DNA of 35,618 bases from Desulfobacteraceae bacterium. Its GTDB lineage: Bacteria > Desulfobacterota > Desulfobacteria > Desulfobacterales > JAABTS01. The stretch's first letter is position 1; every line of letters begins with the position of its first letter. Positions 1 to 35,618 of the stretch are shown here, piece by piece. The position numbers were made by a program, and so were the translations under genes. A model generated the notes under the pieces. That model was not told the DNA's origin, did no database searches, and saw nothing but the letters and a program-made list of their open reading frames with translations. The stretch covers positions 1 through 35,618 of the forward strand of contig JAABTS010000050.1 of assembly GCA_011389735.1 (NCBI GenBank). Direction: 5' to 3'.

Positions 1-60
1 TTGAATCTGACCGGGAAGACCATCCGGGTTTCCATAGGCTATTTTTTTACGCCCGGTCAG
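1..60. repeat. GC-rich hairpin: near-perfect 14-15 bp inverted repeat (TTGAATCTGACCGGG ... CCCGGTCAGTTCAA) around a ~35-nt loop, immediately left of the AT-rich island
   Basis: Read directly: 5' arm at 1-15 and its reverse complement at 52-65. Composition matches the GC-rich host DNA, not the AT-rich island that follows. The window starts here, so the element may be truncated. Confidence 0.4.
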
Positions 61-81
61 TTCAATCCTTATGGGTTATCC

Positions 82-131
82 TTGATATTTATTCTTGACG
101 TTTAACTTGATATTTATTCTTGACGTTTAAC
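82..131 (+). repeat. Perfect tandem direct repeat, 2 x 25 bp (TTGATATTTATTCTTGACGTTTAAC), each carrying a TTGACG -35-like hexamer
   Basis: Copy 1 at 82-106 and copy 2 at 107-131 are identical. They lie directly upstream of the higB start at 155. Confidence 0.9.
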
Positions 132-148
132 GTTAAGCGTTATATGCT
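120..148 (+). promoter_or_regulatory. Putative sigma70-type higBA promoter: -35 TTGACG (120-125), 17-nt spacer, -10 TATGCT (143-148); 10-bp perfect palindrome TTAACGTTAA (127-136) in the spacer as candidate HigA/HigB operator
   Basis: Hexamers and spacing read from sequence. The palindrome sitting in the spacer is typical of autoregulated TA operons. The ATG at 155 is only 6 nt past the -10, so the mRNA would be leaderless or nearly so. Confidence 0.45.
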
Positions 149-154
149 TAAAAC

Positions 155-436
155 ATGATTCAGTCATTCAACGATAAAGAAACAGAAAAAATTTATAATA
201 GAATCTATTCTAAAAAATTTCCTGATGAGATTCAAAGAATAGCTTTTCGAAAATTAAGAATGATAAACCGGGCTCAAAATATAAATGACATTCGGGTTCC
301 ACCTTCAAACAGATTGGAGAAATTAAAAGGAAAACGAGAAGGTAAATACTCGATTCGAATAAACGATCAATGGAGAATATGCTTTGAGTGGCATGGAAAC
401 GATGCTTTCAAGGTTGAAATCATTGATTATCATTAG
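155..436 (+). CDS. higB: HigB-like toxin (RelE/ParE superfamily, 'plasmid maintenance system killer')
   Basis: 93 aa; ends ...RINDQWRICFEWHGNDAFKVEIIDYH, characteristic of HigB-family toxins. Followed after 8 nt by an HTH antitoxin, the canonical higB-higA order. Confidence 0.85.
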   Translation: MIQSFNDKETEKIYNRIYSKKFPDEIQRIAFRKLRMINRAQNINDIRVPPSNRLEKLKGKREGKYSIRINDQWRICFEWHGNDAFKVEIIDYH

Positions 437-444
437 GAGCAAAT

Positions 445-750
445 ATGAAAATGAATAAAATGGAACCATTACATCCGGGCGAGGTGCTTCGGGAAGAATT
501 TCTTAAGCCATTGGGATTAAGTCAGAACAAACTTGCCATGGATCTTCATGTACCAGCAAGAAGAATAAATGAAATTGTTTTAGGTCGAAGAGGAATTACC
601 GCAGATACCGCATTACGATTTGCCAGATATTTTAAAATGTCCCCTCAATTTTGGCTTGGACTTCAAATGGATTTTGAACTTGATTTAGCAAAAGATGCTA
701 ATGAAAAAAAAATAGAAGAAGAAATTCAACCAATGGCAGCGATAATCTGA
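445..750 (+). CDS. higA: HigA antitoxin (XRE-family HTH, addiction-module antidote protein)
   Basis: 101 aa; N-terminus MEPLHPGEVLREEFLKPLGLSQNKLAMDLHVPARRINEIVLGRRGITADTALRFARYF is the typical HigA HTH fold. Confidence 0.85.
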   Translation: MKMNKMEPLHPGEVLREEFLKPLGLSQNKLAMDLHVPARRINEIVLGRRGITADTALRFARYFKMSPQFWLGLQMDFELDLAKDANEKKIEEEIQPMAAII

Positions 751-882
751 AAGAGAGTATCTCAAATTTATTTACAACGTCTCCTTTGATAAGGCCGTGC
801 CATGCATTCTCGGATATCATTTTTGGGCTAATTTAAAATCAAATAATTAATCTTTTTTATCAATCATAGGAAGGGGCCGGCA

Positions 883-1206
883 ATGAAGGAATCTATTGTT
901 ATACAAATAGAAACATCTTTATTGGCCAAATTGACTGTGTTATCCCAAAAAGAAAAAATGAATTTATCGGGTTTGGTTTCTCTGGCTGTTCAACATTACA
1001 TCGACACACAAGAAAGCCCGAAAGCTGAGACAATTGATTTAAAAAATATCGAAATTCCTCCGGAAGGCATTTCACTTGAGAGGCTTCATATCAGATTAGT
1101 TGAAGAAGCCCTAAGATTAACTGATCATAACCAAACTTCAGCGGCAAATCTTTTAGGGATTACAAGGGCGAAATTCCGAATTTTGCAAAAAAAAATTGGA
1201 TCATAG
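883..1206 (+). CDS. Small DNA-binding protein: N-terminal ribbon-helix-helix-like segment plus C-terminal Fis-type HTH
   Basis: 107 aa; C-terminus EEALRLTDHNQTSAANLLGITRAKFRILQKKIG matches the Fis/NtrC-C-terminal HTH pattern. The N-terminus (IVIQIETSLLAKLTVL...MNLSGLVSLAVQHYI) looks like a beta-strand followed by two helices, i.e. RHH-like. RBS GGAAGGGG lies 8 nt upstream of the ATG. Confidence 0.6.
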   Translation: MKESIVIQIETSLLAKLTVLSQKEKMNLSGLVSLAVQHYIDTQESPKAETIDLKNIEIPPEGISLERLHIRLVEEALRLTDHNQTSAANLLGITRAKFRILQKKIGS

Positions 1207-1235
1207 TTGAAAAACATAATTGTGAAATTATCACC

Positions 1236-1844
1236 ATGGGTAAATTTACGCCTCCTACAATCACAACTGTTCGAGAACATATAGCATGGTCCTATGCGAA
1301 CTTAGCTCGCGCTGATGCAGCTCTAAAAGATGGCGCCAATAAATATAGAGTAGTTCATCATATGATTCGCGGCAAGCTTTTTAAGGGACTCAAGGAACAA
1401 ACAATGAGAATATCATCGCTATACCGTGATGAACGTTTAAAGATGACCGTTCCCCAGGCATGCTATTATTGTGGAAGTTACAAAAATCTATCGGTCGACC
1501 ATCTTATTCCAAAAATCAAAGGCGGCGCCGATGATTCTGATAACCTCATTTGGGCCTGTAGACCCTGTAATAGTTCTAAGCGTGACAAAGATATGCTGTC
1601 ATGGATGTTTAACAAAAAAATGTTTCCATCAATTTTATTATTGCGAAGATTTATCAAAATTGTAGCGCGATATTGTGATGAAAACGAATTACTGGATGAA
1701 AATTTGGAGGTCGCTTTAAAAAAATCACTGCCATTTGATTTGGCTATTTTACCATATAATTATCCACCATTAGAAAAAATGCGCCTTTGGATTCTTCCCG
1801 AATTCCAGGAATCCAAGGAATCTCAAGCACACAATCAATTTTAA
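1236..1844 (+). CDS. HNH endonuclease-domain protein (202 aa) with N- and C-terminal extensions
   Basis: Complete HNH zinc-finger motif: CYYCG-x7-LSVDHLIPKIKGG-x5-DNLIWACRPCNSSKRDKD (CxxC...H...N...H...CxxC). Starts 30 nt after the HTH gene, same strand. Confidence 0.85.
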   Translation: MGKFTPPTITTVREHIAWSYANLARADAALKDGANKYRVVHHMIRGKLFKGLKEQTMRISSLYRDERLKMTVPQACYYCGSYKNLSVDHLIPKIKGGADDSDNLIWACRPCNSSKRDKDMLSWMFNKKMFPSILLLRRFIKIVARYCDENELLDENLEVALKKSLPFDLAILPYNYPPLEKMRLWILPEFQESKESQAHNQF

Positions 1845-1852
1845 CCAATAAA

Positions 1853-1880
1853 TTCATCGGATGAAACCGATGGTTTTATT
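1853..1880 (+). terminator. Possible weak intrinsic terminator after the HNH gene (stem CATCGG/CCGATG followed by TTTTATT)
   Basis: 6-bp perfect stem with a 6-nt loop, directly followed by a T-rich run. The stem is short, so confidence is low. Confidence 0.3.
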
Positions 1881-1928
1881 ATTATCTGATGATTTCTATC
1901 GTTATTTTTTAGAAGGAGGCGACAATCA

Positions 1929-2048
1929 ATGAGCAAAAAAATGCTTAAAATGCGGATATCCGGGGCGGGTTTTTGTTATAAAGAACATAAATCAGTTATC
2001 ATCTTTATAACTGTGTGTACATTAATCTTTTTCCAAATCAGGTTTTAA
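1929..2048 (+). CDS. Possible small hydrophobic peptide (39 aa, MSKKMLKMRISGAGFCYKEHKSVIIFITVCTLIFFQIRF), not in the supplied ORF track
   Basis: Strong SD (GAAGGAGG) 9 nt upstream of the ATG at 1929. The C-terminal ~20 residues form a plausible TM helix. The 3' end overlaps the convergent zinc-ribbon gene. Confidence 0.2.
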   Translation: MSKKMLKMRISGAGFCYKEHKSVIIFITVCTLIFFQIRF

Positions 2049-3074
2049 CTCAATTGCTTTATCAATGATCATTTCTTCATCTATATAATCATCCATTTCA
2101 TCAGCATCATGTGACTTTTCAATATCGGCTACTAAAGCGTTATATGCTTTTCGAAATAATGCTGGAGACATCTTTTTTATATTTCGATCTTCCCTCAAAT
2201 CCTCTGATATACATTCGCTATACAAATCAAACAATTCTAACTCATTCGATTTTTCAACCTTTTTTTGTTTCTCATATTCAGAAATTGTTTCTTCCGCTTG
2301 CCCTGCTGTCAATCCTTTGGGTATTTGAATATTGAAGAATCTATAAAAATCTTTTTGTCCTTTTAAAGCGGGGCGATTATTTAGCTTTTTAACATTTTTT
2401 TCATCGGACAATAAATCTTGCGCCTTATATTTTGCCGTTGTACTATTTAACCCCTTCAATGATACTTTAAAAAACTTGAGGATATCCTCAAAGCGTTCAA
2501 TTTCATCGCAATTATGTAAGCCTATGAGATCTGACAACTGACCCTTTGTCATTTTCTGATCTGCTTTAATTCCAAGTTTTCTAGCATATTTAATCTGGCG
2601 GTCGGTAGAATTATCAAAAAACCAATGTGGGGCAATATCCGGCGTCTCATCAATCTCTTTCCATTTCTTTTTTAGATATTCTAAATCCTCATTGTATTTT
2701 TTTTCTTCTGATGTCTCCTCATCAAGATGCCTTCCTTTAGCCGATTTGGCTTGTAACGATTTTGGCTGGGTTTGGATTCCATTCTTCCCTTTAAATTCTT
2801 CTATGTTTTTTTCATCTTCACTGCTTTTTGATTTTATTTTCTGCTTAACCAAAATAACGCTTATTATTAAAAATATTATTCCAGCAAAAGGACTCACTTT
2901 TAATGAAATAGTAATGACACAAAATAACATAATAATAAAACCAACTATTATAATAATAATTGGTATTTCTTTTTCTTCTGGGAAATTATTGCCACACTTT
3001 GGGCACTTGTTTTTCGTTTTATAAACAACATCAGAGTTAGAAATTTCATTCTTACATTTTTTACAAATTGGCAT
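2022..3074 (-). CDS. Zinc-ribbon membrane protein (N-terminal CxxC-x17-CxxC, two TM helices, Lys/Glu-rich cytoplasmic domain with an internally duplicated motif); function unknown
   Basis: The ORF extends to 3155, but MPICKKCKNE...CPKCGNNF starts at the ATG at 3074, which is the more plausible start. The hydrophobic stretch IPIIIIIVGFIIMLFCVITISLKVSPFAGIIFLIISVILV is TM-like. The internal repeat RQIKYARKLGIKADQKMTKGQLSDLIG / FFNIQIPKGLTAGQAEETISEY is present. AT-rich like the rest of the island. Confidence 0.6.
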   Translation of the reverse strand: MPICKKCKNEISNSDVVYKTKNKCPKCGNNFPEEKEIPIIIIIVGFIIMLFCVITISLKVSPFAGIIFLIISVILVKQKIKSKSSEDEKNIEEFKGKNGIQTQPKSLQAKSAKGRHLDEETSEEKKYNEDLEYLKKKWKEIDETPDIAPHWFFDNSTDRQIKYARKLGIKADQKMTKGQLSDLIGLHNCDEIERFEDILKFFKVSLKGLNSTTAKYKAQDLLSDEKNVKKLNNRPALKGQKDFYRFFNIQIPKGLTAGQAEETISEYEKQKKVEKSNELELFDLYSECISEDLREDRNIKKMSPALFRKAYNALVADIEKSHDADEMDDYIDEEMIIDKAIELKPDLEKD

Positions 3075-3361: not shown

Positions 3362-6300
3362 TCAATTAGGCTTCCCCCGAAGCAACCGCGCAATCCCGTC
3401 ATTCCCTTTCTTTTCAGCCCACATCAGGGCGGTCATTCCATTGTTGTCCAGCAGGTTCACGTTCGCCCCGCGCGCCAGCAGCACCTTGACCACATCCACG
3501 CGCCCTTTGGACGCCGCTATCATCAGGGCGGAGTAGCCGTCCCTGTCCACGGCGTCGATCATCGCGCCCTGATCCAGCAGAAAATCGACCACGTTCGGAT
3601 TGTTATGCACCGCCGCCGCCATCAGCGGAGTCGCTTTTTCAGGCGTCCTGGCGTTCACATCCCTGCCCGAACGGAGCAGTTCGCCGAGTTGTTCGATGTT
3701 TCCGTTTTTAATCGCCAGGTAAAAATCATTCTTGCGGCTTTTATGGATGGTTCGCAGGGTCGAAGGCGCAATCGGAGCGGAATTCTTGATCCGTTCCGCG
3801 TAATGCGGATCGACTCCCGCCGCCTGAACCGGAACCACGGAGATCGACTTGATTTCCTTCGCCAATCGATCGATCCTGGACAATGTTTCCTCGGAAAAGG
3901 AGACCATTGTTTGAACCGGCCCCGAAGACCTTTCTTCCCGATCATCTTCGCGAGTTTCAGAACCTCGCGCCTGATAAAACCGCATGAACTGATCCACCCC
4001 GGCCGACAGCGCTCCCCGTATCGACTCCAGCCCGTCCTGAAACGCCGACAACTGGGCCACCACATGCGTCACAGGATTGCTCTCGTCCATCCCCCTCAAC
4101 ATCTGGTTCTTTTGGAACGTCTTCTTTATCTCTTCCCATCGCTCCCGCTGCGTATCCGTCATCCAGCCCGTCAACTCCAAAAACTTGAGCATATTGGCCT
4201 CCGCCCCCGTGGTCAGGGTCTGGGCCTCGCTTTCGTAATGGGACAACAGCAGAGTTTTCAGCTCCGAGTCGTTCATGATCGGAACCAGCTTTTCCGTCAG
4301 CCGGTTCATGTTCCGGTAAGATCCCTGAAGCTTGAACGGAGGCTCCGTTCTGAATTCGTCGGCCATGCCCGCGGAACGGATATATTCCTTATTCACCTTC
4401 AGAATCACCTCCTGAACCGTGATCATCTTTTTCATGACCGACACCATCTCATCGATTTCTTCGCCTGAATAATTCCCCTCAAACTCGACCTCCTCACGGT
4501 CGCCGGTCTTCGCAATCCGGATAATCGAATACACGTCCGCCTGGCTTCGGCTCGACATTTTCCCCAGCACCGGATTGGAGGTCAGCGCGTTTTCAAGGTA
4601 GCTCATTTCGAAATCTTCCCGCGTATCCCCGATAATATCCCCCAGATTGTAAGTATCCGCCCGGTTCGCCAGCATATCCGGTATCTTGAACTTCTCCCCG
4701 CTCTCCGTGTAAGGATTTCCGGCCATCACCACGACCACTTTCTTGCCCCGAAGGTCATACGTCCGGCTTTTGCCTTTATAAACACCTTCAATTTTGCGCT
4801 GGGCGTCGCACAAAGAGATAAATTTTTGTAAGAATTCGGGGTTCAAATGCTGAATATCATCCAGATACAGCATGACATTGTCGCCCATCTCGAGGCAGAG
4901 GTTCAATTTTTGGATTTCTTCCCGGGCTGCGGCGTTGGATGCTTCCTTGGGATCGAGAGACGTGACCGTGTGTCCGATAGCCGGGCCGTTGATTTTCATG
5001 AAGATAACGCCGAGCCGGTTGGCCAGATATTCCATCAGGGTGGTTTTGCCGTATCCGGGAGGCGAAATCAGCAGGAGCATGCCCATGAGGTCGGTGCGTT
5101 TTCCTTCGCCCGCCACGCCGATCTGTTTCGCCAGATTGGCGCCGATCAGCGGCAGATACACTTTGTTTATCAGACGGTTCCGGACAAACGACGTCAAAAT
5201 CCGTGGCTTGAATTCATTCAGCCTCAAACCTTCCCTCATCTCATCGATCAGTTTCCGTTTCAAATCCTGATAACGGTTGTACAGAGGCAAGATCTCCGAT
5301 TCGAACCGGGCGGTTTTGTCCATAAACCGGTAATAATTCAAATGATAGCGCCCGTTTTGAATCACACGATGATCTCCCAGCATCCCGTCTGATTCACGGG
5401 TCATATCCACATCGGCCATATCTTTTTGAACCACTTCCGGCGGATCGAACACAAGAACCGAGGCTTCATCCAGATAATCCAACAGTTCTTCTCTTCCAAG
5501 AGACAGGATATAAGCCTCCATCCAGTCCCGGATCATTTCGAAAACGCTGAGCGGCGAACCGGCCAGTTTTTCCCGCGCGGTTTTGAATTTTTGCAGATAC
5601 AGGCCGGATTTCAAACTCACGGCGAACCCTTCGGACAGCTCGAACGCTTCCTTGCTGACCGAAAATCGCTCCGCCCCGGACGACAACTCCAAAAACAAAT
5701 ATGTCGCCGCATCCGGCGCCGATTCCACCGAAAACAGCCCGGTTCGACGAACGAATTCGTATATCCGGTCGGAAATCTCCGCAATATAACGGGCCTGTTC
5801 CCCCCTGGACGGAAAAATCCCGGATATCATCCCGAACGAACGCAGCTTTTCCAGCATGAGCGATTTTTCAGCCTGTTCTTCATCGGAAAATCCGAGCAGC
5901 ATGAACAATCCGGCCAGCGCCCGAACCCGCGGATGAAATCGCAACAGACCGATTTTGACGTGGATATCGGCCAGCGCCTGCACGATCTTTGCGCAGTCAT
6001 GGTCGTGAACGCCCTTGGAATAGCCTTCGGCATATCTCGGGCCCATGAACCGGCGAACCATGCCCTGAAGCTCTTCTTCGGACGCCTCCGCGAATTCGCT
6101 GATCGCCGAATCTCCACGGCTTTCAGCGTCTTTCAGCATTCGCAACGCCAGAAATTCGCCCCGGTAAACGTCCTCGTTCTCCGACGGAACCTCCATACCC
6201 CACACGCTCCGGGTCTTTATGAACTCAGGATGATCTATCGTTTCGAAAAAATCGGTTCCGGCCAGATGGAAAACCTGCTCGCCGTCCCGCTGTACGATCG

Positions 6301-8914
6301 TAAGATCCAGCGGCTGAACGTTCACGGAAAACCGGTAATCACCGAACCGGATAATATCGGCGCCGTCCTCGAACAATTCTTTCCGGTCTTTGAGCCGCCG
6401 GACGGTGTCTTCCCGCATCGTTTTCAGACGGGATTGAATATCGTCCGCCTTGACCGTATCGTCAAGCTCCCGAAGCTGAACGATAATGTCCCGGATTTTC
6501 TCGATCATCAGATCCGATGCGAAATACCCGTTGATTTCATTGATGTCCGTCATCCCGTCCACGCGGTTCCGGACGCCTTTCAAAATCCGCTCCGCCGCGC
6601 TCATCAACGCGTTCGCACGCTTGTTCCGGGCTTCCACAAGGGACAGCTTCCGGGTTTCAAACGCATGATACAACGCTTCCCGCTTTTCAGACAATTGGAC
6701 TATAAAATCGTCGAACTCGACAAACGCCCCCTCCAGTTCTTCAAGCTGTATCATTAATTTGGTCAGATACTCATCGCATTTATCAGGCGTGTCGCTGATA
6801 TCCAGATAGTTGATCACGCTCTGGTTCAACAGCTTGATCCGGGCGTTGAACCGCTCCACGCCCTCAACGCTTGCAAGGCTTTTACGCTTGTTTTTAAGTT
6901 CCGCCTTGACTTTGTTGATATCGGAATAGATGGCGGAAATATCGTCGATAATTCGGGTGGTTTGAGTGGAATCCTCGATCTTGAGGTTACTGACGATATC
7001 GATCAGCATTTCCAGATCCCCCGAAACAGCGCCCACGTCTTCCTGAATCCGGTCAGCGTCCGCCACACGGTCGCATTCCACGATCCGCCCCCGTGTCTCA
7101 ACGACTCGATTTACATATGGCTTCAGAGCCTCATCGCTCAATAAAAATTCCACACAGGCCGAAGAAACCCGGCCGGTCGCATCCTTGACTCCAGCCTCCA
7201 GAGACTCCACAGCATCCAAATCCACATACCGGAGATCCTTCAAAGATATGATTTCACCCCGAATATTCCGCAATTGGGAAAGCCGTTCCACAAAATGATC
7301 GATACGGTTCATCACGCCGAGATCGACCGACTTGAGAATTTCGCCGGCCCGATCGGAAACCTCCCGAACCCGGCTCTCAGTACCCTTTTTCAGCCGGACG
7401 ACCTTTTCGAACGCATCAATCGCCCCGCTCGCCGTACGCTTGATTTCGAGAACCGTTTCCTTGATATTGAACGCTTCGGGCCGTTCGATCCAGAAATAGG
7501 CGTCGGCGATATCCGTGGATTTTTTGACTATGTCATGGTACAGCCCCGAATAGGTGTCCTCCTTGTTCAAAAGCCTCAACAATTCGTTGCATTCGGCCAT
7601 GCATCGCACAATGTCCTTGTTGCCGACTTTGTAAAGAAAGGCGTCTTTTTTATCCGCCCCAGGAAGCAGGCCCGTAATAAAAGGCGTTTGCATGATCTGA
7701 ACCACATGATGCTTCGTCGGTTCGGGATCGCTGCGCAAAAGCAGCATTTCCCCGCTGTCAAAAATGGAAAAACCGCTGCACACGATCGGCGTATCCACTT
7801 TTTGATCGATAATATTATAGTGCAGCAAAATGTGATCCCCGGTCTCCCGGTTATAAAATACATAAAGAAAATCTTCGCCGTTGGACGACGCCGCCCGGCG
7901 CTCGAAACGCATATCGGCCAGGCCGCTTTCGAATTGCTTGAGTTCGCCGGTCTGAAGATAATATCCGTTGGAAAACATGAGCCCCTGGCTGTCCGGGAGA
8001 AGCACGCATGCGTTTTCGATCTCATCGACACGGCTCACCGCCTGAGTTTTTTCATTGAAGATATAATATCGAAACGCATTTTCCTGGTAAGGCCGGATTC
8101 GCACAAGAATCATGTTACCGACAAAAGCGTAGTAAATTTCAGCGTCATCGAGAGTCTGATCCTTGTTCTCGACGGCTTCCGAATACACCCCGTATCCGTC
8201 GGCCGTGTTGTCCTCCACCTTGAAAGTGATATCCCCGCCGACAGCCTCCACAAACAACCGGTCGTCCAGGGAAATATGAGGATGCACGCCTGCCCGGTGC
8301 TGGTCCCTGGTCGTCCGGGTCCAGGCGAATTCGTGCTGAGCCGGAAACTTGAATTCATGGTCGCTCCGGTTGTCCAGATACACCGGCCCCGATTCCTGCA
8401 TGGCCCATTTGAACGTTTTGATATCAACGACGGATTTGCCGATATTGAAAACCATGAAAAGATGGGGCCCGATGATCGAAAATTTCGCGAACCGCGTTTC
8501 CTTGTAATATTTATACAAGTCCTTGAAATCGGCCTCGAACCTTCCCGAATCCAGAATATCGACCGGCTGTTCGCGAAACGAGCCGTCACGGTATTCGTAA
8601 ACCGCAAACACATCGGATATCCCCGTCTCGGATTTCAGCCCCATACGCACGTTATACCCGAAAATAAACAGATTCCGCCCGATTGAAACCATGTCACGGG
8701 GGATGCAATTGTTTTGGGTTGAAATCCGTTCGGTCGACAAAATTGTGGTTTCGATAGAGCCGAAGATATCCTTGCGGGACTGATTGAGTTCACCCAGGCT
8801 GGATTGCAGGGCGTTCCCCTGAGTCAGCAGCCGGTTGCGGATAATCTCGTAAGCGCCGCCGTCCAGAGCAATCCTTGATTCATCCTGTGCTTTCACATCT
8901 TCATTGCCGGCCAT
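3362..8914 (-). CDS. Giant multidomain protein (~1850 aa): N-terminal ~1250 aa of unknown fold, MoxR/AAA_5-like AAA+ ATPase core, ~270-aa linker, C-terminal 3-4 ankyrin repeats
   Basis: Walker A LLISPPGYGKTTL; Walker B/MoxR-like MLYLDDIQHLNPEFLQKF; sensor-1 VVVVMAGNPYTE; arginine-finger region KIPDMLANRA (nt ~4600-5060). Ankyrin repeats PLMAAAVHNNPNVVDFLL / SALMIAASKGRVDVVKVLLARGANVN / TALMWAEKKGNDGIARLL (nt ~3362-3775). A coiled-coil-rich segment spans aa ~560-900. The track ORF begins with TTG at 8920. The ATG at 8914 has a GGGAG SD 6 nt upstream and is preferred. Confidence 0.85.
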   Translation of the reverse strand: MAGNEDVKAQDESRIALDGGAYEIIRNRLLTQGNALQSSLGELNQSRKDIFGSIETTILSTERISTQNNCIPRDMVSIGRNLFIFGYNVRMGLKSETGISDVFAVYEYRDGSFREQPVDILDSGRFEADFKDLYKYYKETRFAKFSIIGPHLFMVFNIGKSVVDIKTFKWAMQESGPVYLDNRSDHEFKFPAQHEFAWTRTTRDQHRAGVHPHISLDDRLFVEAVGGDITFKVEDNTADGYGVYSEAVENKDQTLDDAEIYYAFVGNMILVRIRPYQENAFRYYIFNEKTQAVSRVDEIENACVLLPDSQGLMFSNGYYLQTGELKQFESGLADMRFERRAASSNGEDFLYVFYNRETGDHILLHYNIIDQKVDTPIVCSGFSIFDSGEMLLLRSDPEPTKHHVVQIMQTPFITGLLPGADKKDAFLYKVGNKDIVRCMAECNELLRLLNKEDTYSGLYHDIVKKSTDIADAYFWIERPEAFNIKETVLEIKRTASGAIDAFEKVVRLKKGTESRVREVSDRAGEILKSVDLGVMNRIDHFVERLSQLRNIRGEIISLKDLRYVDLDAVESLEAGVKDATGRVSSACVEFLLSDEALKPYVNRVVETRGRIVECDRVADADRIQEDVGAVSGDLEMLIDIVSNLKIEDSTQTTRIIDDISAIYSDINKVKAELKNKRKSLASVEGVERFNARIKLLNQSVINYLDISDTPDKCDEYLTKLMIQLEELEGAFVEFDDFIVQLSEKREALYHAFETRKLSLVEARNKRANALMSAAERILKGVRNRVDGMTDINEINGYFASDLMIEKIRDIIVQLRELDDTVKADDIQSRLKTMREDTVRRLKDRKELFEDGADIIRFGDYRFSVNVQPLDLTIVQRDGEQVFHLAGTDFFETIDHPEFIKTRSVWGMEVPSENEDVYRGEFLALRMLKDAESRGDSAISEFAEASEEELQGMVRRFMGPRYAEGYSKGVHDHDCAKIVQALADIHVKIGLLRFHPRVRALAGLFMLLGFSDEEQAEKSLMLEKLRSFGMISGIFPSRGEQARYIAEISDRIYEFVRRTGLFSVESAPDAATYLFLELSSGAERFSVSKEAFELSEGFAVSLKSGLYLQKFKTAREKLAGSPLSVFEMIRDWMEAYILSLGREELLDYLDEASVLVFDPPEVVQKDMADVDMTRESDGMLGDHRVIQNGRYHLNYYRFMDKTARFESEILPLYNRYQDLKRKLIDEMREGLRLNEFKPRILTSFVRNRLINKVYLPLIGANLAKQIGVAGEGKRTDLMGMLLLISPPGYGKTTLMEYLANRLGVIFMKINGPAIGHTVTSLDPKEASNAAAREEIQKLNLCLEMGDNVMLYLDDIQHLNPEFLQKFISLCDAQRKIEGVYKGKSRTYDLRGKKVVVVMAGNPYTESGEKFKIPDMLANRADTYNLGDIIGDTREDFEMSYLENALTSNPVLGKMSSRSQADVYSIIRIAKTGDREEVEFEGNYSGEEIDEMVSVMKKMITVQEVILKVNKEYIRSAGMADEFRTEPPFKLQGSYRNMNRLTEKLVPIMNDSELKTLLLSHYESEAQTLTTGAEANMLKFLELTGWMTDTQRERWEEIKKTFQKNQMLRGMDESNPVTHVVAQLSAFQDGLESIRGALSAGVDQFMRFYQARGSETREDDREERSSGPVQTMVSFSEETLSRIDRLAKEIKSISVVPVQAAGVDPHYAERIKNSAPIAPSTLRTIHKSRKNDFYLAIKNGNIEQLGELLRSGRDVNARTPEKATPLMAAAVHNNPNVVDFLLDQGAMIDAVDRDGYSALMIAASKGRVDVVKVLLARGANVNLLDNNGMTALMWAEKKGNDGIARLLRGKPN

Positions 8915-8960
8915 ACCCAACTCCCTGACGGTTCAACGTCCGCATGCTTTCGAAAACAAG

Positions 8961-11096
8961 TTATTCTTTTTTTCCTCGATCTTCCAGGTTCAAGGAGCCC
9001 AGGATTTTGTTACCCAGCCCGGATCGTTCAGCCATGGAAATGAGACCGTATAGATCGCTCCGTGCGTTGTCGCAATCCGTCTGCGATACAAGGCGGCTCA
9101 ATGCGGCCGATACGGTGAGATCTTTGAACTGTTCGGCGCTGACGCCGAACTGGCTGAAAAACTGGGTAAGCTGGGATTTGAAAAATTCCGGATCGCCGTT
9201 GAAAAAGGTGTCCTTGACGTTTTTGAGTACGTCGCTGCCTTCGATAAGACGATCGATCGCCTTGCCGCCCGATACGGCGTTGACCACGCGATCGAAAAAC
9301 ATGGACTCCCCTCCGACGATATCCACCCTGGCGGATTTAAGGGCCGCGCCGAGGGTTTCCGCCTGATAGGAGGCGATTTCCTTGCGAATATTGATTTCGG
9401 CGATACGGATGTCTTTTTCCATGGCCAGACGGATTTTATATTCTTCGTGTTCACGGCCCACGGCGTCGAGCAATTTCATGGCGTTGGCCTTGCTTTCGAT
9501 GCCTTTAGCCTCGGCCTGAAACAACATGGACTGGGTTTTGGCTTCGGATGCGCCTTTTAATTCAATGCCTTTGGCGTCGGCTTCATTTTTCAGCTCGATC
9601 ACTTTAGCTTCGGCCGCGCCTTTTTTCTCGATCAACAGCGTCTGAGCCTCGTTAATTTTCACCTGAGCCAATCCGGCTGCGGCCTTTTCGGCGATTTCGC
9701 CTTCGGCCAGCAGCTTTTTGGCGTTGGCGTCTTTTTCCGCGGCAGCCTGCCTGGCCTCCGCCTCGATCACTACCTGCTCGGCTTTCATTCCGGCGGCGCC
9801 TTTCGACGCTTCAGCCGCTTTAAGCACACGATTTCTTTCTTCTTCCGCCTTGAACTCGGCGACTTTCCGGGACGCTTCAGCCGCTTTGACATCGATCAGC
9901 AAAGATTCTTCAGCCTCTTTTTCAGCCTTGGTGATAGCCACTTTTTTCTCGCGATCCGCCTGAGCGTAGGCTTCGGTGTCCTTGATTCGCTCCTGTTCCT
10001 CGATCACAGTTTTTTCAACCATTACCCGCTCACGTATTACATTCTGGATCGCTTTTTTTTCGACTTCAAGGGCTTTTTCCTTTTCAATCTGAGCTAACGA
10101 CACCAGCCGTTCCCGTTCGGTCGCCTCGATCATCCGATCTTTTTCCACCCGCTCGTTCTCGATGGCCTCGGTGCGTTCTTTGTTCTTGCGGGCCACGACC
10201 ACCTGCCGCAGTTTGTTTTCTTCCGCCACGGCAAGCTGTTCTTCGGTGGCGATCCGGGCGGATTCGGCCTTATATTTCTCTTCTTCCTGAATTTTCCGGG
10301 TTTCAGCTTCTTCCCGGGCTTTGACGGATTCGACCTCGCGCTTTTTCTGATTTTCGGTCTGGGACAACTGCCGGTTCAATTCCAGAACGGTTTCCCGGGC
10401 TTCGACATCCTGTTTGGTGATCGTCTTTTCTTTTTCCCGGTCGATCTGGTTGGCGAGTATTTTTTGAGTCGCCGTAAGCTCCGTGATCTTTTTAATCCCC
10501 TGGGAATCCAGAATATTATCAGCCTTTAGATCTTCCAGTTGTGTTTGTTCCAGAAAATCGATTGCTGCGTCATCCAGGATAAACCCATTCAAATCCGTGC
10601 CGATGATCTTCAGCATTTCCTCTTTGAATTTTTCCCGGGAATTATACAAATCCACGAAATCGAATTGTTTTCCGACGGTTTTCAGAGCTTCGGAAAATTT
10701 GGCTTCGAACAGATCCTGAAGCGCCGCCTGATGAGACGCTCGTTCGCAACCAATAGACTGGGCCACCTTGAGTACGTCTTCGCCCGTTTTGTTCACCCGG
10801 ACGAAAAAGGCCACCTTGATGTCGGCCCGAAGATTGTCCTGGCAAATCAGGCCCTCGATTCCCTGCCGGTCGATCGTGACCTTTTTAACGGAAATATCGA
10901 TAAATTCCATGCGATGAAGAATCGGAATCACCATGATTCCTGAAAACGTGACACTGGTTCCGCCGACGCCGTTCCGAACCAACGCATGTCCCTGTTCCAC
11001 TTTTTTGTAAAATCTCGCCAGCATGGTAAGAAGACCGACAAGGATGATAAATCCGCCGATAAGGACAACCCCGATCGATAAGCCCAGAATTTCCAT
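8961..11096 (-). CDS. Flotillin-like SPFH/band-7 protein (YqiK family)
   Basis: 711 aa; N-terminal TM helix, SPFH core (...VTIDRQGIEGLICQDNLRADIKVAFFVRV...), a very long Glu/Ala/Lys-rich coiled coil, and a C-terminal flotillin tail. Strong SD CAGGAGGGG. Sits 13 nt downstream of an NfeD-like gene. Confidence 0.9.
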   Translation of the reverse strand: MEILGLSIGVVLIGGFIILVGLLTMLARFYKKVEQGHALVRNGVGGTSVTFSGIMVIPILHRMEFIDISVKKVTIDRQGIEGLICQDNLRADIKVAFFVRVNKTGEDVLKVAQSIGCERASHQAALQDLFEAKFSEALKTVGKQFDFVDLYNSREKFKEEMLKIIGTDLNGFILDDAAIDFLEQTQLEDLKADNILDSQGIKKITELTATQKILANQIDREKEKTITKQDVEARETVLELNRQLSQTENQKKREVESVKAREEAETRKIQEEEKYKAESARIATEEQLAVAEENKLRQVVVARKNKERTEAIENERVEKDRMIEATERERLVSLAQIEKEKALEVEKKAIQNVIRERVMVEKTVIEEQERIKDTEAYAQADREKKVAITKAEKEAEESLLIDVKAAEASRKVAEFKAEEERNRVLKAAEASKGAAGMKAEQVVIEAEARQAAAEKDANAKKLLAEGEIAEKAAAGLAQVKINEAQTLLIEKKGAAEAKVIELKNEADAKGIELKGASEAKTQSMLFQAEAKGIESKANAMKLLDAVGREHEEYKIRLAMEKDIRIAEINIRKEIASYQAETLGAALKSARVDIVGGESMFFDRVVNAVSGGKAIDRLIEGSDVLKNVKDTFFNGDPEFFKSQLTQFFSQFGVSAEQFKDLTVSAALSRLVSQTDCDNARSDLYGLISMAERSGLGNKILGSLNLEDRGKKE

Positions 11097-11109
11097 GATA
11101 CCCCTCCTG

Positions 11110-11727
11110 TTATTCTTCGTTATACTTTTCTACAAAATAGACGCCGTTTTCCCTGTCCTCGTCATAAACCAGAGCTTTGTCGCCCTTTATAAGAACGCCG
11201 CCGCCCGTTGTCCGCGCATGGATCGTAATCGGGGCCCCTCCGGTCAAAATTTCAACCTGCCCGAATGATGAATTGACCTGGCTGGTGACCACCGTCCCTA
11301 CTTGATACATGACCGAGCTTTCCTTTCGCTGATCGTTTTGTTTGAACATTTTTGCCAGAGGTTTCATGATAAAAGCGGTGATAAAAAACGAAACAATGAA
11401 ATTGGGTATCAGAAACGCCAGGCCGAGGAGAATTGAATGGGAAGGATTTAAAAAATAATTCAGAATCAATGAAAACCACCAGCAGCTCATGACCATTAAA
11501 GTGACTACGAACATGATCGGAACTTCGCCGAGACTCAAAAATTCCGTAATCGATGATAAAAAGCCTCCTGAACCGTCCACATCGATATCCGGAGTAATAT
11601 CCGCGTCTAAAAATTCGAGATCTATTCCTCCTAGAATGACCGCAAGCCAGTACAACATTGTAAGGCCGAAGATGACTGTAAAAGGAAGGTTGAGAGGCAT
11701 TACCGTCTGTTGCAGGAATTCAAACAT
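11110..11727 (-). CDS. NfeD/YqiJ-like membrane protein (multi-TM N-terminus, C-terminal OB-fold beta domain); usual partner of SPFH proteins
   Basis: 205 aa; 3-4 hydrophobic helices then GTVVTSQVNSSFGQVEILTGGAPITIHARTTGGGVLIKGDKALVYDEDRENGVYFVEK, typical of the NfeD short-form OB domain. Confidence 0.8.
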   Translation of the reverse strand: MFEFLQQTVMPLNLPFTVIFGLTMLYWLAVILGGIDLEFLDADITPDIDVDGSGGFLSSITEFLSLGEVPIMFVVTLMVMSCWWFSLILNYFLNPSHSILLGLAFLIPNFIVSFFITAFIMKPLAKMFKQNDQRKESSVMYQVGTVVTSQVNSSFGQVEILTGGAPITIHARTTGGGVLIKGDKALVYDEDRENGVYFVEKYNEE

Positions 11728-25845: not shown

Positions 25846-25970
25846 TTAAGGCATCCTTCATAAACCCAGGAAAGTGGTTGACACTTTCCAAGTCGGGATC
25901 CCGATCCCGATCCCGATAGCGATCCCGATTTCAAAGTGTAAACCGACAGATGAAGGATGCCACATTTAAT
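25846..25970. repeat. MITE/REP-like composite element. Terminal 12-nt inverted repeats GGCATCCTTCAT/ATGAAGGATGCC enclose an 8-bp perfect hairpin (GGAAAGTG-gttga-CACTTTCC) and a (CCGATC)3-4 / GGGATC hexamer tract (25893-25933).
   Basis: All repeats are read directly. The hexamer tract is the reverse-orientation relative of the tracts at 33332-33353 and 35577-35598. Confidence 0.7.
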
Positions 25971-31391: not shown

Positions 31392-31531
31392 GAATGTTGA
31401 ATTTTGAATTTTGAATGTTGAATGTTGAATGTTGAATTTTGAATGTTGAATTTTGAATTTTGAATGTTAGATGTTGAATGTTGAATGTTAAATGTTAAAT
31501 GTTAAATGTTAAATGTTGAATGTTAGATGTG
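31392..31531 (+). repeat. Tandem heptanucleotide array, ~20 units of GAATGTT (variants GAATTTT, AAATGTT, AGATGTT)
   Basis: Read directly; the units are contiguous with no spacer. Lies directly upstream of the XPB-like helicase gene. Confidence 0.95.
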
Positions 31532-31543
31532 AGTCCCCCATTT

Positions 31544-31596
31544 AGCATTCAACATACAACATTCAACATAAATAATTTAGCATTCAACATAACATT
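31544..31596 (+). repeat. Inverted copies of the heptamer (ATTCAACATA x3, i.e. reverse complement of ATGTTGAAT) between the array and the helicase start codon
   Basis: AGCATTCAACATACAACATTCAACATAAATAATTTAGCATTCAACATAACATT can base-pair with the upstream (GAATGTT)n array. Confidence 0.8.
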
Positions 31597-31603
31597 TGGA
31601 AAG

Positions 31604-33316
31604 ATGGCGACGATAAACCCTTCAAATCCACTGATCGTTCAAGGAGATTATACGGTTCTGGCGGAAGTCGACAGCCCCGGCTTTACAGCCGCCAGGAATC
31701 GTTTGGTGCGATTCGCGGAATTGATTAAATCCCCTGAATACATTCATACGTATCGAATCACGCCGCTTTCCATATGGAACGCATGCGCATCCGGGATATC
31801 GAAACATGAAATCGGAGACGCGCTCGAAGAATATTCCAAATATCCTGTTCCGGAACATGTTCTCGCCCAAATCGGCGATTATATTTCACGTTACGGAAGG
31901 CTGAAGATTTTAAAAGAGGAAGGCCGTTTGATTCTGGACGCCGAGGACCGGCGGCTCGCCAGGGAAATCGAAAACGACAAGACGCTTCGAAAATTGATCG
32001 ACGGCAATATATCGCCGACACGGTTTATCGTTCCGGCGGTGAACCGGGGTAGAATAAAACAGGCGTTGATCAAGGCCGGATATCCCGCTGAAGATATGGC
32101 CGGATATACGGAAGGCAATCCGCTCCTCTTTACCCTGCGTTCCCCTTCCCTTTCAGGCGCCCCTTTTGAACTAAGATCTTATCAGCGGCAGGCGGCCGAT
32201 TCATTTCACGCCGGCGGTTCGCCACAGGGGGGATCGGGCGTCATTGTTCTTCCATGCGGCGCCGGGAAAACCATTGTGGGCATATCCTGCATGGAAAAGT
32301 TACAAACATCGACCTTGATTTTAACGACCGGAACCACCGCGGTCAAGCAATGGAAAAGCGAACTAATTGATAAAACCACGCTGACCGAAGACCAAATCGG
32401 GGAATACACGGGCGAAAAAAAAGAAATCCGGGGCGCCACGCTTTCCACCTATCAAATCATGACCTATCGCAGCAAAAAAGATCCGGATTTCAAACATCTG
32501 TCCCTTTTTGAGGAACAAAATTTCGGGCTGATCATTTATGACGAAGTGCATATGCTGCCGGCGCCCATATTTCAAATCACGGCGGGATTACAGGCCAGAC
32601 GGCGGTTAGGCCTGACCGCCACGCTCGTGCGGGAAGACAACCGGGAAGATGATGTTTTCGCTCTGATCGGCCCCAAAAAAATGGATTCCCCGTGGAAAGA
32701 ACTGGAGTCTCAGGGATGGATCGCATGCGCCGCATGTTGTGAAATTCGGATTCCGCTGCCCGAAGATCTCCAGGTGCTTTACGCCGTGGCCGAACGGCGA
32801 AAAAAATTCCGGATCGCATCGGAGAATCCCCGAAAGATAGACATTGTGCGCCGTCTCATATCCAATCACGAACATCATCAGATTCTTGTCATCGGCCTGT
32901 ATTTGGAGCAGTTGCGGACGATCTCCGAAGAAATGAACATCCCCGTCATTACGGGAAAAATGTCTCAAACAAACCGCGACGACCTTTACCGGAGATTCAG
33001 AGCCGGCGAAATCAGATGCATGGCGGTTTCAAAGGTCGCCAATTTTGCGATAGACCTTCCGGACGCTTCCGTTGCTATCCAGATTTCAGGAACATTCGGA
33101 TCAAGGCAGGAGGAGGCCCAACGCCTGGGGCGCATACTGAGACCCAAACCGGGAGAAAACCAGGCCCATTTTTATACGCTGGTGACAAAAGATACGATTG
33201 AACAGGACTTTGCGCTTAACCGGCAACTATTTCTGTGCGAACAGGGATACGCCTATGAAATCAGGGATGAAGGGATAGGTTCTAACTTCGGCCATCAGTT
33301 TAGTGATTGGGCTTGA
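31604..33316 (+). CDS. XPB/Rad25 (ERCC3)-type SF2 DNA helicase
   Basis: Motif I VLPCGAGKTIVGI; Ia TTGTTAVKQWKSEL; II IIYDEVHMLPA; III and RED motif LGLTATLVREDNREDDVFALIGPKKMD; VI EEAQRLGRILR. The N-terminal ~200 aa are consistent with a damage-recognition domain. The start at 31604 (GGAAAG SD) is preferred over the track start at 31520, which lies inside the repeat array. Confidence 0.9.
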   Translation: MATINPSNPLIVQGDYTVLAEVDSPGFTAARNRLVRFAELIKSPEYIHTYRITPLSIWNACASGISKHEIGDALEEYSKYPVPEHVLAQIGDYISRYGRLKILKEEGRLILDAEDRRLAREIENDKTLRKLIDGNISPTRFIVPAVNRGRIKQALIKAGYPAEDMAGYTEGNPLLFTLRSPSLSGAPFELRSYQRQAADSFHAGGSPQGGSGVIVLPCGAGKTIVGISCMEKLQTSTLILTTGTTAVKQWKSELIDKTTLTEDQIGEYTGEKKEIRGATLSTYQIMTYRSKKDPDFKHLSLFEEQNFGLIIYDEVHMLPAPIFQITAGLQARRRLGLTATLVREDNREDDVFALIGPKKMDSPWKELESQGWIACAACCEIRIPLPEDLQVLYAVAERRKKFRIASENPRKIDIVRRLISNHEHHQILVIGLYLEQLRTISEEMNIPVITGKMSQTNRDDLYRRFRAGEIRCMAVSKVANFAIDLPDASVAIQISGTFGSRQEEAQRLGRILRPKPGENQAHFYTLVTKDTIEQDFALNRQLFLCEQGYAYEIRDEGIGSNFGHQFSDWA

Positions 33317-33321
33317 AGTTT

Positions 33322-33390
33322 TTGAATCCAAATCGGGATCGGGATCGGGATCGTTATCGAAGGATTCAATTTCGATCCCGATACCGATAA
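33322..33390 (+). repeat. GGGATC hexamer element copy B: TTGAATCC-(AAATCGGGATCGGGATCGGGATCG)-TTATCGAA-GGATTCAA then TTTCGATCCCGATACCGATAA
   Basis: 8-bp inverted repeat TTGAATCC/GGATTCAA around the hexamer tract (33332-33353). Shares the CGATACCGATA tail with copy C. Confidence 0.8.
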
Positions 33391-33459
33391 ATGAAAATGG
33401 CCGAAGATAGAACCGGGCCGGGGATGAATCACGCCGTGTGACAAATTAACAGGTGGCTT

Positions 33460-35469
33460 ATGTACAATTTACCTTCAGATTGGATTCAGTTAATCGATTT
33501 TCTTGAAAAATGGAACGGTCTGAGCGCCCGAGGCAGACGTTTGTTTTTGAATTTCAAAAAAGAATGCAGCAAATCCAAAACATCGAAACCGGACCACCGG
33601 TTCGCCGAGCTGGTCGACGCCGGGTTTTTAATTCAAAATTCAAAAAAAACACCTGAAATCCGGGAAGATCTGAAACCTTACGCCGACACCCTGTCCGTCA
33701 TGGAAAAGATTCCCTTGTTTGACGGGAAAGCCGATAAAAATCTTCTTTCAGTATATCTGGACGCCCATTTCCGTTATTCGCATAAACGGGCCCTCGAAAC
33801 CGGGCTAAACTGCAATTACGGCGGGTTCGGGACGGATATACTGGTTCGTGAACTGGCGAATCCCGGAAGGCTTGACGATTTTCTGGAAACCCGCTCGTAT
33901 TCGGACTGGGAACGCCGTTATTCAAAATGTGAGATCGAATTTTTTGACACCGAAGAAATATTCGGCATGACTCAGACACTGGTGAGGCATTGTCTTGAAA
34001 AACAAAATCCACTGCATGTCGGCCGGATATGCAAGCTTTTTCCGGACAAGGAAACAGTCAAAATATCAAAGGCGGTATCCGCCGGCGTTTACTACGCCTT
34101 GCTGTTTTTGGCGTTGAGAACTTCCGATCTGGAATCCCGGGCCGGTGTCTGGCCGTCGATTTTTCAGAGAGCCAGACGGTCCAAACCCGTAAAACCCCGG
34201 CAGGCGACCCCCGAAACCGTATTCAGCCGGTCCGTTTTGATGGAGGACATGACCCATGCGGCGGTTCAAGCGTGCCTTGAACCGTTGCGGATCAAACTGG
34301 ACGGAAACGGTATCTACCAGCGGGACTTGAAACAACTGGAACCGGGGCTCGTTCAGGTTCCCCCCTGGGTCAACGACCTTTTTGATTGCAGCGCTTCCGG
34401 CCGCCTGGAAAAAGCGGTTCAATTTCTGCGACTTTTCAATCTTATCGAATACAAAGGCTCTCCCGGCAAAAACAGGAGGATTGAAACAAGCGACGACGGC
34501 CGGCGATGGCTCGATTTGTCCGAAACGCAGCGTGTTATATTCATTCTGGAACGGATGCGGCGTCATAATGAAAGAAATGTGGCATTCGAAGATGTCGATC
34601 ACAGTGAACGTTCCTTTGATTATTTGAATCCGTATCCGCCCATGCGAAGTATCGGACTGGATAAGAATCTTCGCCGCTGGATCGCCGATGCGTTTAAAAA
34701 TATCCCGCTGGATACGTTCTACAAGATCGATACCTTTCTTTATCATGAAAAGCTGCAAAACAATCCATTGTTAAAAATCGCCGGTCCTGACGACCTTATT
34801 CAAGTTTATGTCAAAAATTCACTTATCCCTCCGGATGAGGAAGACCTTGAAAATATCTGGGAAACCCTGATTTATCAGTTTTTAGGATCATCTCTGGCGT
34901 ATACGGGCGCCGCTTCCGTAAGCGCTCTGAAAGATGGAAGCCTGGCTTTCGCCCTGACGGACTTGAGCCGTTATTTGTTGAATCCCGAGAAAGCGCGCCG
35001 GCCGGTCGAGGACAAAACCCCTTCCGTTCTTATCCAGCCGGATTTCGAAATCATTTTTTTGTCTCCGTCGCCTGGAGCGGAACGCCGCATCGGCCGGTTC
35101 GCCGAACGAATCGGATATCATATCGGCGCCATGTTTAAAATTACGAAAGCTTCCATATTCCAGGCCGCGGGCGCCGGCGTGACCTGTGAAACCGTGCTGA
35201 ACACTCTTGACCGAATCGCCATAGGCCCGATACCCGCCAACGTTAAAGGCGAAATTATAGGATGGTTTGAACAGTTCAAATGCGTCCGTATAGAATCCGG
35301 AAATCAAATCCGCTGCGACGACCGAACCACCACCAGGCTGATTTTAACCGCTCTGGGCGACCACTTCAAACCCGTTTCCGACTGTATCCTCAGAATACGA
35401 AACACCGCCCCTAAAAAAACCATCACCCAGAAACTCATGGGTATCGGCGTTTTCGTCAAGACTGAATAA
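33460..35469 (+). CDS. Uncharacterised 669-aa protein, candidate functional partner of the XPB-like helicase
   Basis: AGGTGG SD 5 nt upstream; same strand as the helicase and 143 nt downstream of it. No catalytic motif could be recognised by eye. Bracketed by hexamer elements B and C. Confidence 0.8.
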   Translation: MYNLPSDWIQLIDFLEKWNGLSARGRRLFLNFKKECSKSKTSKPDHRFAELVDAGFLIQNSKKTPEIREDLKPYADTLSVMEKIPLFDGKADKNLLSVYLDAHFRYSHKRALETGLNCNYGGFGTDILVRELANPGRLDDFLETRSYSDWERRYSKCEIEFFDTEEIFGMTQTLVRHCLEKQNPLHVGRICKLFPDKETVKISKAVSAGVYYALLFLALRTSDLESRAGVWPSIFQRARRSKPVKPRQATPETVFSRSVLMEDMTHAAVQACLEPLRIKLDGNGIYQRDLKQLEPGLVQVPPWVNDLFDCSASGRLEKAVQFLRLFNLIEYKGSPGKNRRIETSDDGRRWLDLSETQRVIFILERMRRHNERNVAFEDVDHSERSFDYLNPYPPMRSIGLDKNLRRWIADAFKNIPLDTFYKIDTFLYHEKLQNNPLLKIAGPDDLIQVYVKNSLIPPDEEDLENIWETLIYQFLGSSLAYTGAASVSALKDGSLAFALTDLSRYLLNPEKARRPVEDKTPSVLIQPDFEIIFLSPSPGAERRIGRFAERIGYHIGAMFKITKASIFQAAGAGVTCETVLNTLDRIAIGPIPANVKGEIIGWFEQFKCVRIESGNQIRCDDRTTTRLILTALGDHFKPVSDCILRIRNTAPKKTITQKLMGIGVFVKTE

Positions 35470-35570
35470 TGGTTTCGTATCGTCTTCCGGTAATCAAATT
35501 TCAGTGCGTTATCGGCCGGAGATATACGAGTTGTATTATCCGGCATCCTTCATTTCTTGTTTACAGTTTC

Positions 35571-35618
35571 ATCAAAATCGGGATCGGGATCGGGATCGTA
35601 ATAATTCGATACCGATAC
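35571..35618 (+). repeat. GGGATC hexamer element copy C (AAAATCGGGATCGGGATCGGGATCGTAATAATTCGATACCGATAC), at the window edge
   Basis: Same orientation and near-identical core to copy B. Truncated by the window end. Confidence 0.8.

Follow-up and report, generated by a model that had tools for sequence, protein, structure and literature searches.

The window analysed here, a stretch of 35,618 nt from a Desulfobacteraceae bacterium (contig JAABTS010000050.1), carries a gene for an XPB/Rad25-type helicase and, downstream on the same strand, a gene for a 669-residue protein that we refer to as the partner. The helicase is XPB, and the partner combines winged-helix domains with a C-terminal domain resembling the "clutch" of p52/Tfb2, the subunit that recruits XPB in the transcription factor TFIIH. 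The modelled partner resembles the whole p52 chain in its fold, and the two genes are tightly linked in a wide range of bacteria. We consider it likely that they form a free-standing bacterial counterpart of the XPB–p52 (Ssl2–Tfb2) sub-module of TFIIH. The pair is most likely a bacterial variant of this module in a large undescribed family, contradicting the published statement, made in an open-access biochemical paper of 2012, that there is no p52 homologue in bacteria (Balasingham et al., PMC3353954). A full-text search of the literature, which covered few subscription journals, revealed no account of a p52-like partner of XPB in bacteria, so that a prior mention is possible. The function and control of bacterial XPB were called elusive in a review of March 2026 (PMC13024598).

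The helicase and its predicted partner

The product of the helicase gene is a true XPB, in agreement with the preliminary description, which had recognized the XPB hallmarks, including the RED motif, from the sequence. It scores 842.8 bits against the NCBIfam equivalog NF045503 ("DNA repair helicase XPB"; cut-off 610) and 339.9 bits against TIGR00603 (cut-off 328.7), contains the Pfam domains Helicase_C_3, ResIII and ERCC3_RAD25_C, and has, by direct reading, the Walker A motif GAGKT (aa 219–223), a DEVH box (aa 313–316) and the RED motif (aa 343–345). In a sequence search of the Protein Data Bank (PDB), it matched yeast Rad25 with 273 bits and human XPB with 266 bits, compared to ≈150 bits for archaeal XPB. 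Human XPB (8ebt_A) could be aligned to residues 6–554 in one stretch (E = 1e-77) that included the N-terminal domain. The window XPB is collinear with the eukaryotic protein, N-terminal domain included, and its sequence has more in common with eukaryotic XPB than with archaeal XPB. The N-terminal domain, which contains the motif RITPLSI (aa 51–57), is common to bacterial and eukaryotic XPB and absent from archaeal XPB (PMC3353954). The protein resembles Mycobacterium tuberculosis Rv0861c and the Kineococcus radiotolerans XPB in belonging to the NCBIfam equivalog and in its domain order, with an N-terminal domain before the helicase core and without the C-terminal extension of the eukaryotic protein. 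The longest open reading frame (ORF) begins at position 31520, inside a repeat array (see below); the start was placed at 31604 (MATINPSNPL), which matches the start (MAMVNPANPL) in the closest relative, locus L081.

The partner belongs to a family that was visible only through an exhaustive HMMER search. A word-indexed homologue search with the single sequence returned only the protein itself and one relative, and a profile of 90 family sequences added one weak match. HMMER yielded 968 representatives, clustered at 50% identity, at E ≤ 1e-3, of which 266 were at E ≤ 1e-30. Most relatives are ≈660 aa long and match from end to end, demonstrating that the 669-aa ORF is a real gene. In the NCBI gene model (642 aa), the start lies 27 codons beyond the ATG at 33460, so that positions 33460–33540 are left out; since the family as a whole conserves residues M1, W8, W18 and R26, this model is probably 27 aa too short and the longer 669-aa model correct.

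The sole Pfam domain in the partner is Helicase_C_3 (PF13625; aa 523–629, 39.5 bits, cut-off 34.2), the same domain that is found at the N-terminus of XPB, and all 70 relatives scanned against Pfam contained it. The hidden Markov model (HMM) of the partner family also matched the N-terminal domain of the window XPB (E = 2.5e-8). One relative is named "helicase-associated domain-containing protein" by NCBI, a PF13625 label that refers to the C-terminal domain only and is silent on the p52-like architecture and the linkage to XPB. A PDB search with the partner as a single sequence gave no match, and the 90-sequence family profile was required. With this profile, the best six matches were all Tfb2/p52 (E = 1.7e-5 to 0.025), led by yeast Tfb2 (E = 1.7e-5) and followed by C. 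thermophilum Tfb2 and human p52, while XPB reached only E = 0.67. The alignment to Tfb2 covers residues 335–405, corresponding to the clutch domain; by profile comparison, therefore, the partner is homologous to the Tfb2 clutch at the sequence level. (A 71-aa Tfb2 clutch query aimed at eukaryotic p52 returned just fragments of 78–117 aa.) Furthermore, 29 of the 70 relatives touched the Pfam Tfb2 family (PF03849) at E ≤ 1, with a best E of 5e-7, below the gathering score.

Two motifs stand out in the C-terminal domain, IQPDFEIIFL and KITKASI (aa 560–566). The latter aligns with ITRESI in Tfb2, and the window XPB has RITPLSI. T562, the threonine of this [KRQ]-I-T-x-x-S-I motif, is kept in 85 of the 90 family sequences. 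T119 of XPB is conserved both in XPB and in the p52 clutch (Greber et al., PMC6422496), and we take T562 to be its likely counterpart. Conservation within the family is concentrated on Trp, Pro, Gly, Arg and hydrophobic residues, with isolated acidic residues only and no conserved His or Lys in the 90 sequences. No catalytic signature, nuclease or other, was seen in the partner at the level of Pfam domains, family conservation or fold.

An AlphaFold2 (AF2) model of the partner, calculated with the family alignment, had a mean predicted local distance difference test score (pLDDT) of 89.8 and a predicted template modelling score (pTM) of 0.87, with a short low-confidence linker at aa ≈372–400. 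The model consists of about four winged-helix units, each with a helix–helix–helix–strand–strand topology, one helical insert and a C-terminal α/β domain. The winged-helix domains resemble those of PadR/MarR regulators, and the first two (WH1 and WH2) and the clutch are basic in 64–79% of the relatives. When the model was compared to the PDB with Foldseek, ranks 1–18 were all occupied by p52/Tfb2 chains from TFIIH structures, the best of which (9pd3_D) matched with E = 2.2e-8 and a probability of 1.0 over ≈560 aligned columns. XPB chains ranked after these, with ≈166 aligned columns. In the model, the C-terminal domain has the fold shared by the XPB N-terminal domain and the p52 clutch. Like p52, the partner appears to combine an N-terminal winged-helix array with a clutch that is homologous to the N-terminal domain of XPB and contains the I-T-x-x-S motif. 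The preliminary description had listed a 669-aa protein of unknown fold and mentioned TFIIH only in passing. The family is large and uncharacterized, but its modelled fold is recognizable as p52/Tfb2-like, and TFIIH proves to be the relevant analogy.

Linkage of the two genes across bacteria

One genome per species was scanned with the partner family alignment, resulting in 80 loci from Acidobacteriota/Terriglobia, Planctomycetota, Gemmatimonadota, Syntrophaceae, Verrucomicrobiota/Lentisphaerae and Spirochaetes. Five of these had no upstream sequence to judge, leaving 75 informative loci. XPB adjoins the partner gene in 72 of the 75 (96%), representing at least seven bacterial lineages; in 71 of them it immediately precedes the partner gene on the same strand, and in the remaining one (L007) the neighbouring XPB gene is on the opposite strand. 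The longest partner ORF begins exactly 4 nt before the XPB stop codon in at least 23 of the 60 loci in which the spacing was measured, and within 30 nt after it in five. Most of the remaining spacings are over-extensions of the longest ORF in GC-rich DNA. In contrast to the subunits of TFIIH, the bacterial XPB and partner genes are thus arranged in tandem, often overlapping, in an operon-like manner. The adjacent XPB ORFs reported by HMMER, in most of the 80 loci, contain an N-terminal region recognized by the clutch profile.

When the flanking ORFs of ≥90 aa at the 80 loci were clustered, no conserved third gene emerged, the next clusters being shadow ORFs. The genes that directly border the pair differ between loci and mostly have metabolic or housekeeping functions. 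Unlike in TFIIH, there is no p8-like gene at the partner loci and no linked gene for p34, p44, p62 or XPD. The co-occurrence of the two genes, proposed as a check in the preliminary description, is therefore borne out, and so is the notion of a conserved two-component unit; the effector role that had been suggested for the second component is not, as it has no nuclease or other catalytic motif.

In the closest relative (L081), the partner is 74% identical to that in the window, the gap between XPB and the partner is 10 nt, and the same glutamate-synthase gene lies upstream. The pair in this relative is followed by a gene for an extracytoplasmic function (ECF)-type sigma-70 factor (L081:4204-4785); the window ends before the equivalent position.

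A second p52-like protein, of 570–770 aa (400–774 aa as called) and with a C-terminal Helicase_C_3 domain, is encoded directly upstream of XPB in 8 of the 80 loci (Table 1). The family of these upstream paralogues can be aligned to that of the partner across 382 columns (hhalign probability 99.6%), and one member touches Pfam Tfb2 (E = 1.3e-6, 28.0 bits, cut-off 34.5). Judged by these alignments, XPB is flanked by two p52-like (clutch-domain) paralogues in some bacteria; the window locus has the downstream type only. Mycobacterial Rv0862c, a neighbour upstream of XPB (Rv0861c), may correspond to the upstream type. We found nothing functional on Rv0862c in the literature.

A proposed mode of action and its alternatives

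In TFIIH, p52 recruits XPB through a pseudo-symmetric dimer formed by its clutch and the homologous N-terminal domain of XPB (PMC6422496), and the contact of p52 with this domain stimulates the XPB ATPase, according to the citation of Coin 2007 in PMC3353954. Because both halves of this interface are present in the bacterial proteins, and because their genes are adjacent and often overlap, we infer that the partner binds XPB, modulates its ATPase and anchors it. XPB would serve as an ATP-driven double-strand DNA translocase and the partner as a scaffold and regulator without enzymatic activity. If the analogy with TFIIH holds, the partner clutch would pair with the XPB N-terminal domain in a pseudo-symmetric heterodimer that holds XPB and tunes or stimulates its ATPase. 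The basic winged-helix domains would tether XPB to DNA or to another protein, and translocation of XPB against this anchor would lead to opening or remodelling of the DNA. The most probable setting for such an activity would be DNA repair.

Several observations weigh against this explanation. At the sequence level, homology to p52 is demonstrated for the clutch domain only, and the window partner has no match to Pfam Tfb2 (PF03849) at E ≤ 0.1, does not reach its gathering score and thus falls outside this family by the curated threshold. The similarity of the N-terminal array consists of Foldseek 3Di alignments with TM-scores of 0.16–0.36 and a large root-mean-square deviation (RMSD), and winged-helix domains are common. 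Low TM-scores are to be expected when a protein is elongated and its several domains meet at different angles; because of them, the collinearity of the modelled array with p52 is suggestive, not proven. The partner is ≈200 aa longer than p52, and its AF2 model lacks the p8/Tfb5-binding C-terminal module. Among ORFs of 40–110 aa, none recurs in three or more of the loci, and hence no counterpart of p8/Tfb5 can be detected. In three loci (L013, L034 and L070), the partner has an unrelated neighbour instead of XPB, and in the window itself, the XPB–partner gap is 143 nt and contains a stable hairpin, indicating a looser coupling than in the relatives.

The same architecture could belong to a transcription-associated machine, in which the winged-helix array sits on RNA polymerase, a sigma factor or promoter DNA while XPB aids opening or restart, much as TFIIH does. 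The sub-module is, after all, the one that opens Pol II promoters, the winged-helix domains are PadR/MarR-like, and the pair in L081 is followed by the ECF sigma-factor gene. We nevertheless regard this as improbable: bacterial RNA polymerase opens promoters without the need for an ATPase, the 80 loci showed no conserved linkage to genes for RNA polymerase, sigma or transcription factors, and, in vitro, the M. tuberculosis XPB shows helicase and annealing activities of the repair type (PMC3353954). The resemblance of the array to transcription regulators might also mean that the partner is an independent DNA-binding regulator with multiple winged helices, which is co-transcribed with XPB and forms no complex with it, as the three loci with no adjacent XPB would allow. 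Such independence would be very surprising, given the 96% adjacency across phyla, the frequent 4-nt overlaps, and the fact that the only domain common to the partner and XPB is the one through which XPB and p52 pair in TFIIH.

The preliminary description had raised two other possibilities, phage defence and, by comparison with archaea, a nuclease. A helicase-based module against phages or plasmids, with the partner as sensor or adaptor, would fit a two-gene cassette in changing neighbourhoods, now and then next to a PIN or DarT gene, and the XPB core is weakly similar to PbeA and the Dnd-type restriction helicases. These matches are confined to the generic superfamily 2 (SF2) core, however, and the partner had 0 matches in PADLOC-DB 2.0. 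Neither protein, nor any conserved neighbour, has an effector domain (nuclease, NADase, protease or pore), the window is core-chromosomal and most of the 80 loci likewise lie amid housekeeping or metabolic genes, and we found no literature link between XPB and defence. We accordingly give this role little credence. In archaea, XPB is paired with Bax1, a nuclease thought to control the outcome of XPB-driven DNA opening (PMC7672443). The bacterial gene order resembles that of the archaeal XPB–Bax1 operons (PMC7672443), in that XPB is paired with a dedicated partner gene, raising the possibility of a Bax1-like or PD-(D/E)xK nuclease that cuts the DNA opened by XPB. Unlike Bax1, however, the partner has no nuclease domain or fold: there was no DUF790 match in the window protein or its 70 relatives, and the top 18 Foldseek matches were all p52/Tfb2 chains. 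The chance that it is such a nuclease is negligible, and we have rejected Bax1-like identity.

A stronger version of the XPB–p52 counterpart is that the partner is a true bacterial p52/Tfb2 homologue, that it and XPB together make up a minimal machine of two subunits for opening DNA, and that the XPB–p52 pairing is ancient rather than a eukaryotic invention. We regard this as possible, without leaning towards it. If true, the module would either be of bacterial origin or have been exchanged between bacteria and the eukaryotic stem, and it would provide a simple system for how p52 controls XPB. With a conserved p52-like partner encoded next to it, bacterial XPB should be studied as a two-subunit enzyme, with a predicted contact between its N-terminal domain and the partner clutch. 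The pair would offer a two-protein bacterial model for the XPB–p52 interface, the site of disease mutations in humans, for example F99S and T119P. The origin of TFIIH is concerned as well, since the window XPB is nearer to eukaryotic than to archaeal XPB and appears to have a matching partner. The question of the function of bacterial XPB is now directly testable.

Intergenic repeats and other features of the window

The coordinates of the features are listed in Table 1. A heptamer array lies between the glutamate-synthase gene and XPB, with 21 pattern matches compared to 0.39 expected, and is reminiscent of the short heptamer repeats that occur in tandem in some other bacteria. Together with the inverted partial copies that follow it (inverted repeats I1–I12, with 52-nt arms that are 77–81% complementary), it has the potential to form a long imperfect hairpin (31392–31590). 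A weak sigma-70-like promoter match (9 of 12 positions) at 31549–31576 overlaps the inverted copies.

The hexamer ATCGGG occurs in runs of 3.7 copies at 33332–33353 and 35577–35598, as identified by Tandem Repeats Finder (TRF), with ten matches compared to 0.15 expected by chance. A third (ATCGGG)n copy is found on the other strand at 25897–25929, at a distance of 7.4 kb upstream. Its flanks match as well, those of the element at 25886–25965 agreeing with those of the element at 35540–35618. The hexamers are part of a palindromic element of ≈80 nt, resembling repetitive extragenic palindromic (REP) sequences or miniature inverted-repeat transposable elements (MITEs), of which there are three copies in 35.6 kb: 25886–25965 (−), 33320–33390 (+) and 35540–35618 (+). 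The copy between XPB and the partner has a predicted RNA folding energy of −30.8 kcal/mol (z = −3.08), forming a hairpin that is not followed by a T-run.

The heptamers upstream of XPB and the hexamers around the partner gene had been noted before as signs of an accessory locus. Both repeats exist, but they do not support that interpretation. With its third copy, the hexamer motif proves to be an intergenic element dispersed in the window that does not specifically bracket the partner gene, and L081, which has the same synteny, has no heptamer array in the corresponding intergenic region and no hexamers. Both repeat types are therefore lineage-specific, incidental additions outside the conserved module, and we have rejected the idea that they bracket a mobile or accessory locus. 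There was no match to an Rfam family in the window, so the repeats represent no known riboswitch or small RNA.

Table 1. Coordinates of the XPB and partner genes, their domains, the upstream paralogues in other loci and the intergenic repeats. Positions refer to the window unless preceded by a locus name.
Feature	Position	Strand	Basis or remarks
XPB/Rad25-type SF2 DNA translocase/helicase, 570 aa	31604..33316	+	NCBIfam NF045503, Pfam, PDB search; start backed by L081
XPB N-terminal domain, aa 10-131	31631..31996	+	Pfam PF13625 Helicase_C_3, 110.8 bits
RED motif region LGLTATLVREDNRE, aa 335-348	32606..32647	+	Direct reading
Putative p52/Tfb2-like XPB partner, 669 aa, AGGTGG Shine-Dalgarno upstream	33460..35469	+	Family, AF2 model, Foldseek, adjacency
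Modelled N-terminal array, ~four winged-helix domains + helical insert, aa 1-510	33460..34989	+	WH1, WH2 basic in most relatives
C-terminal clutch-like domain, aa 511-669 (Helicase_C_3 aa 523-629)	34990..35469	+	IQPDFEIIFL, KITKASI motifs
Upstream p52-like paralogues	L001:329-2170, L006:1447-3771, L015:2048-3997, L033:1477-3348	+	
Upstream p52-like paralogues	L052:2687-3889, L054:2562-4310, L056:2604-4310, L072:2415-4331	+	
Heptamer array, 19 copies GAATGTT/GAATTTT/AAATGTT	31392..31524	.	TRF period 7, 90% matches, score 189
Inverted partial heptamer copies, CATTCAACAT units, just upstream of XPB start	31539..31590	.	Inverted repeats I1-I12
Palindromic intergenic element, (ATCGGG)n core, between XPB and partner	33320..33390	.	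TRF, inverted repeat I21
Second (ATCGGG)n element downstream of partner, ended by contig edge	35540..35618	.	Flank = 25941-25961 inverted (I24)

The window represents core chromosome, with genes for L21, Obg, ProB, a ProA-like dehydrogenase, a NadD-like protein, iPGM, PepA, glutamate dehydrogenase and an archaeal-type glutamate synthase. The proteins of this lineage are singletons at 90% identity. The minus-strand region 3362–11727 encodes an 1852-aa protein that combines DUF3686 ("ATPase involved in DNA repair", 598.7 bits), DUF7902 and an AAA domain with ankyrin repeats at its C-terminus; next come ORFs of 711 and 205 aa that had no match in Pfam or PADLOC. These three genes may constitute an uncharacterized ATPase system. 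Positions 1–3000 have a GC content of 0.32–0.37, compared to ≈0.5 elsewhere, and include an HNH endonuclease ORF (1236–1844) and a 377-aa ORF with no family match; this part is possibly foreign DNA at the end of the contig. Near the start of the contig, at 76–131, TRF identified a tandem repeat with a period of 13/25, built of TTATTCTTGA[TC]AT units and containing a perfect 25-mer in two copies.

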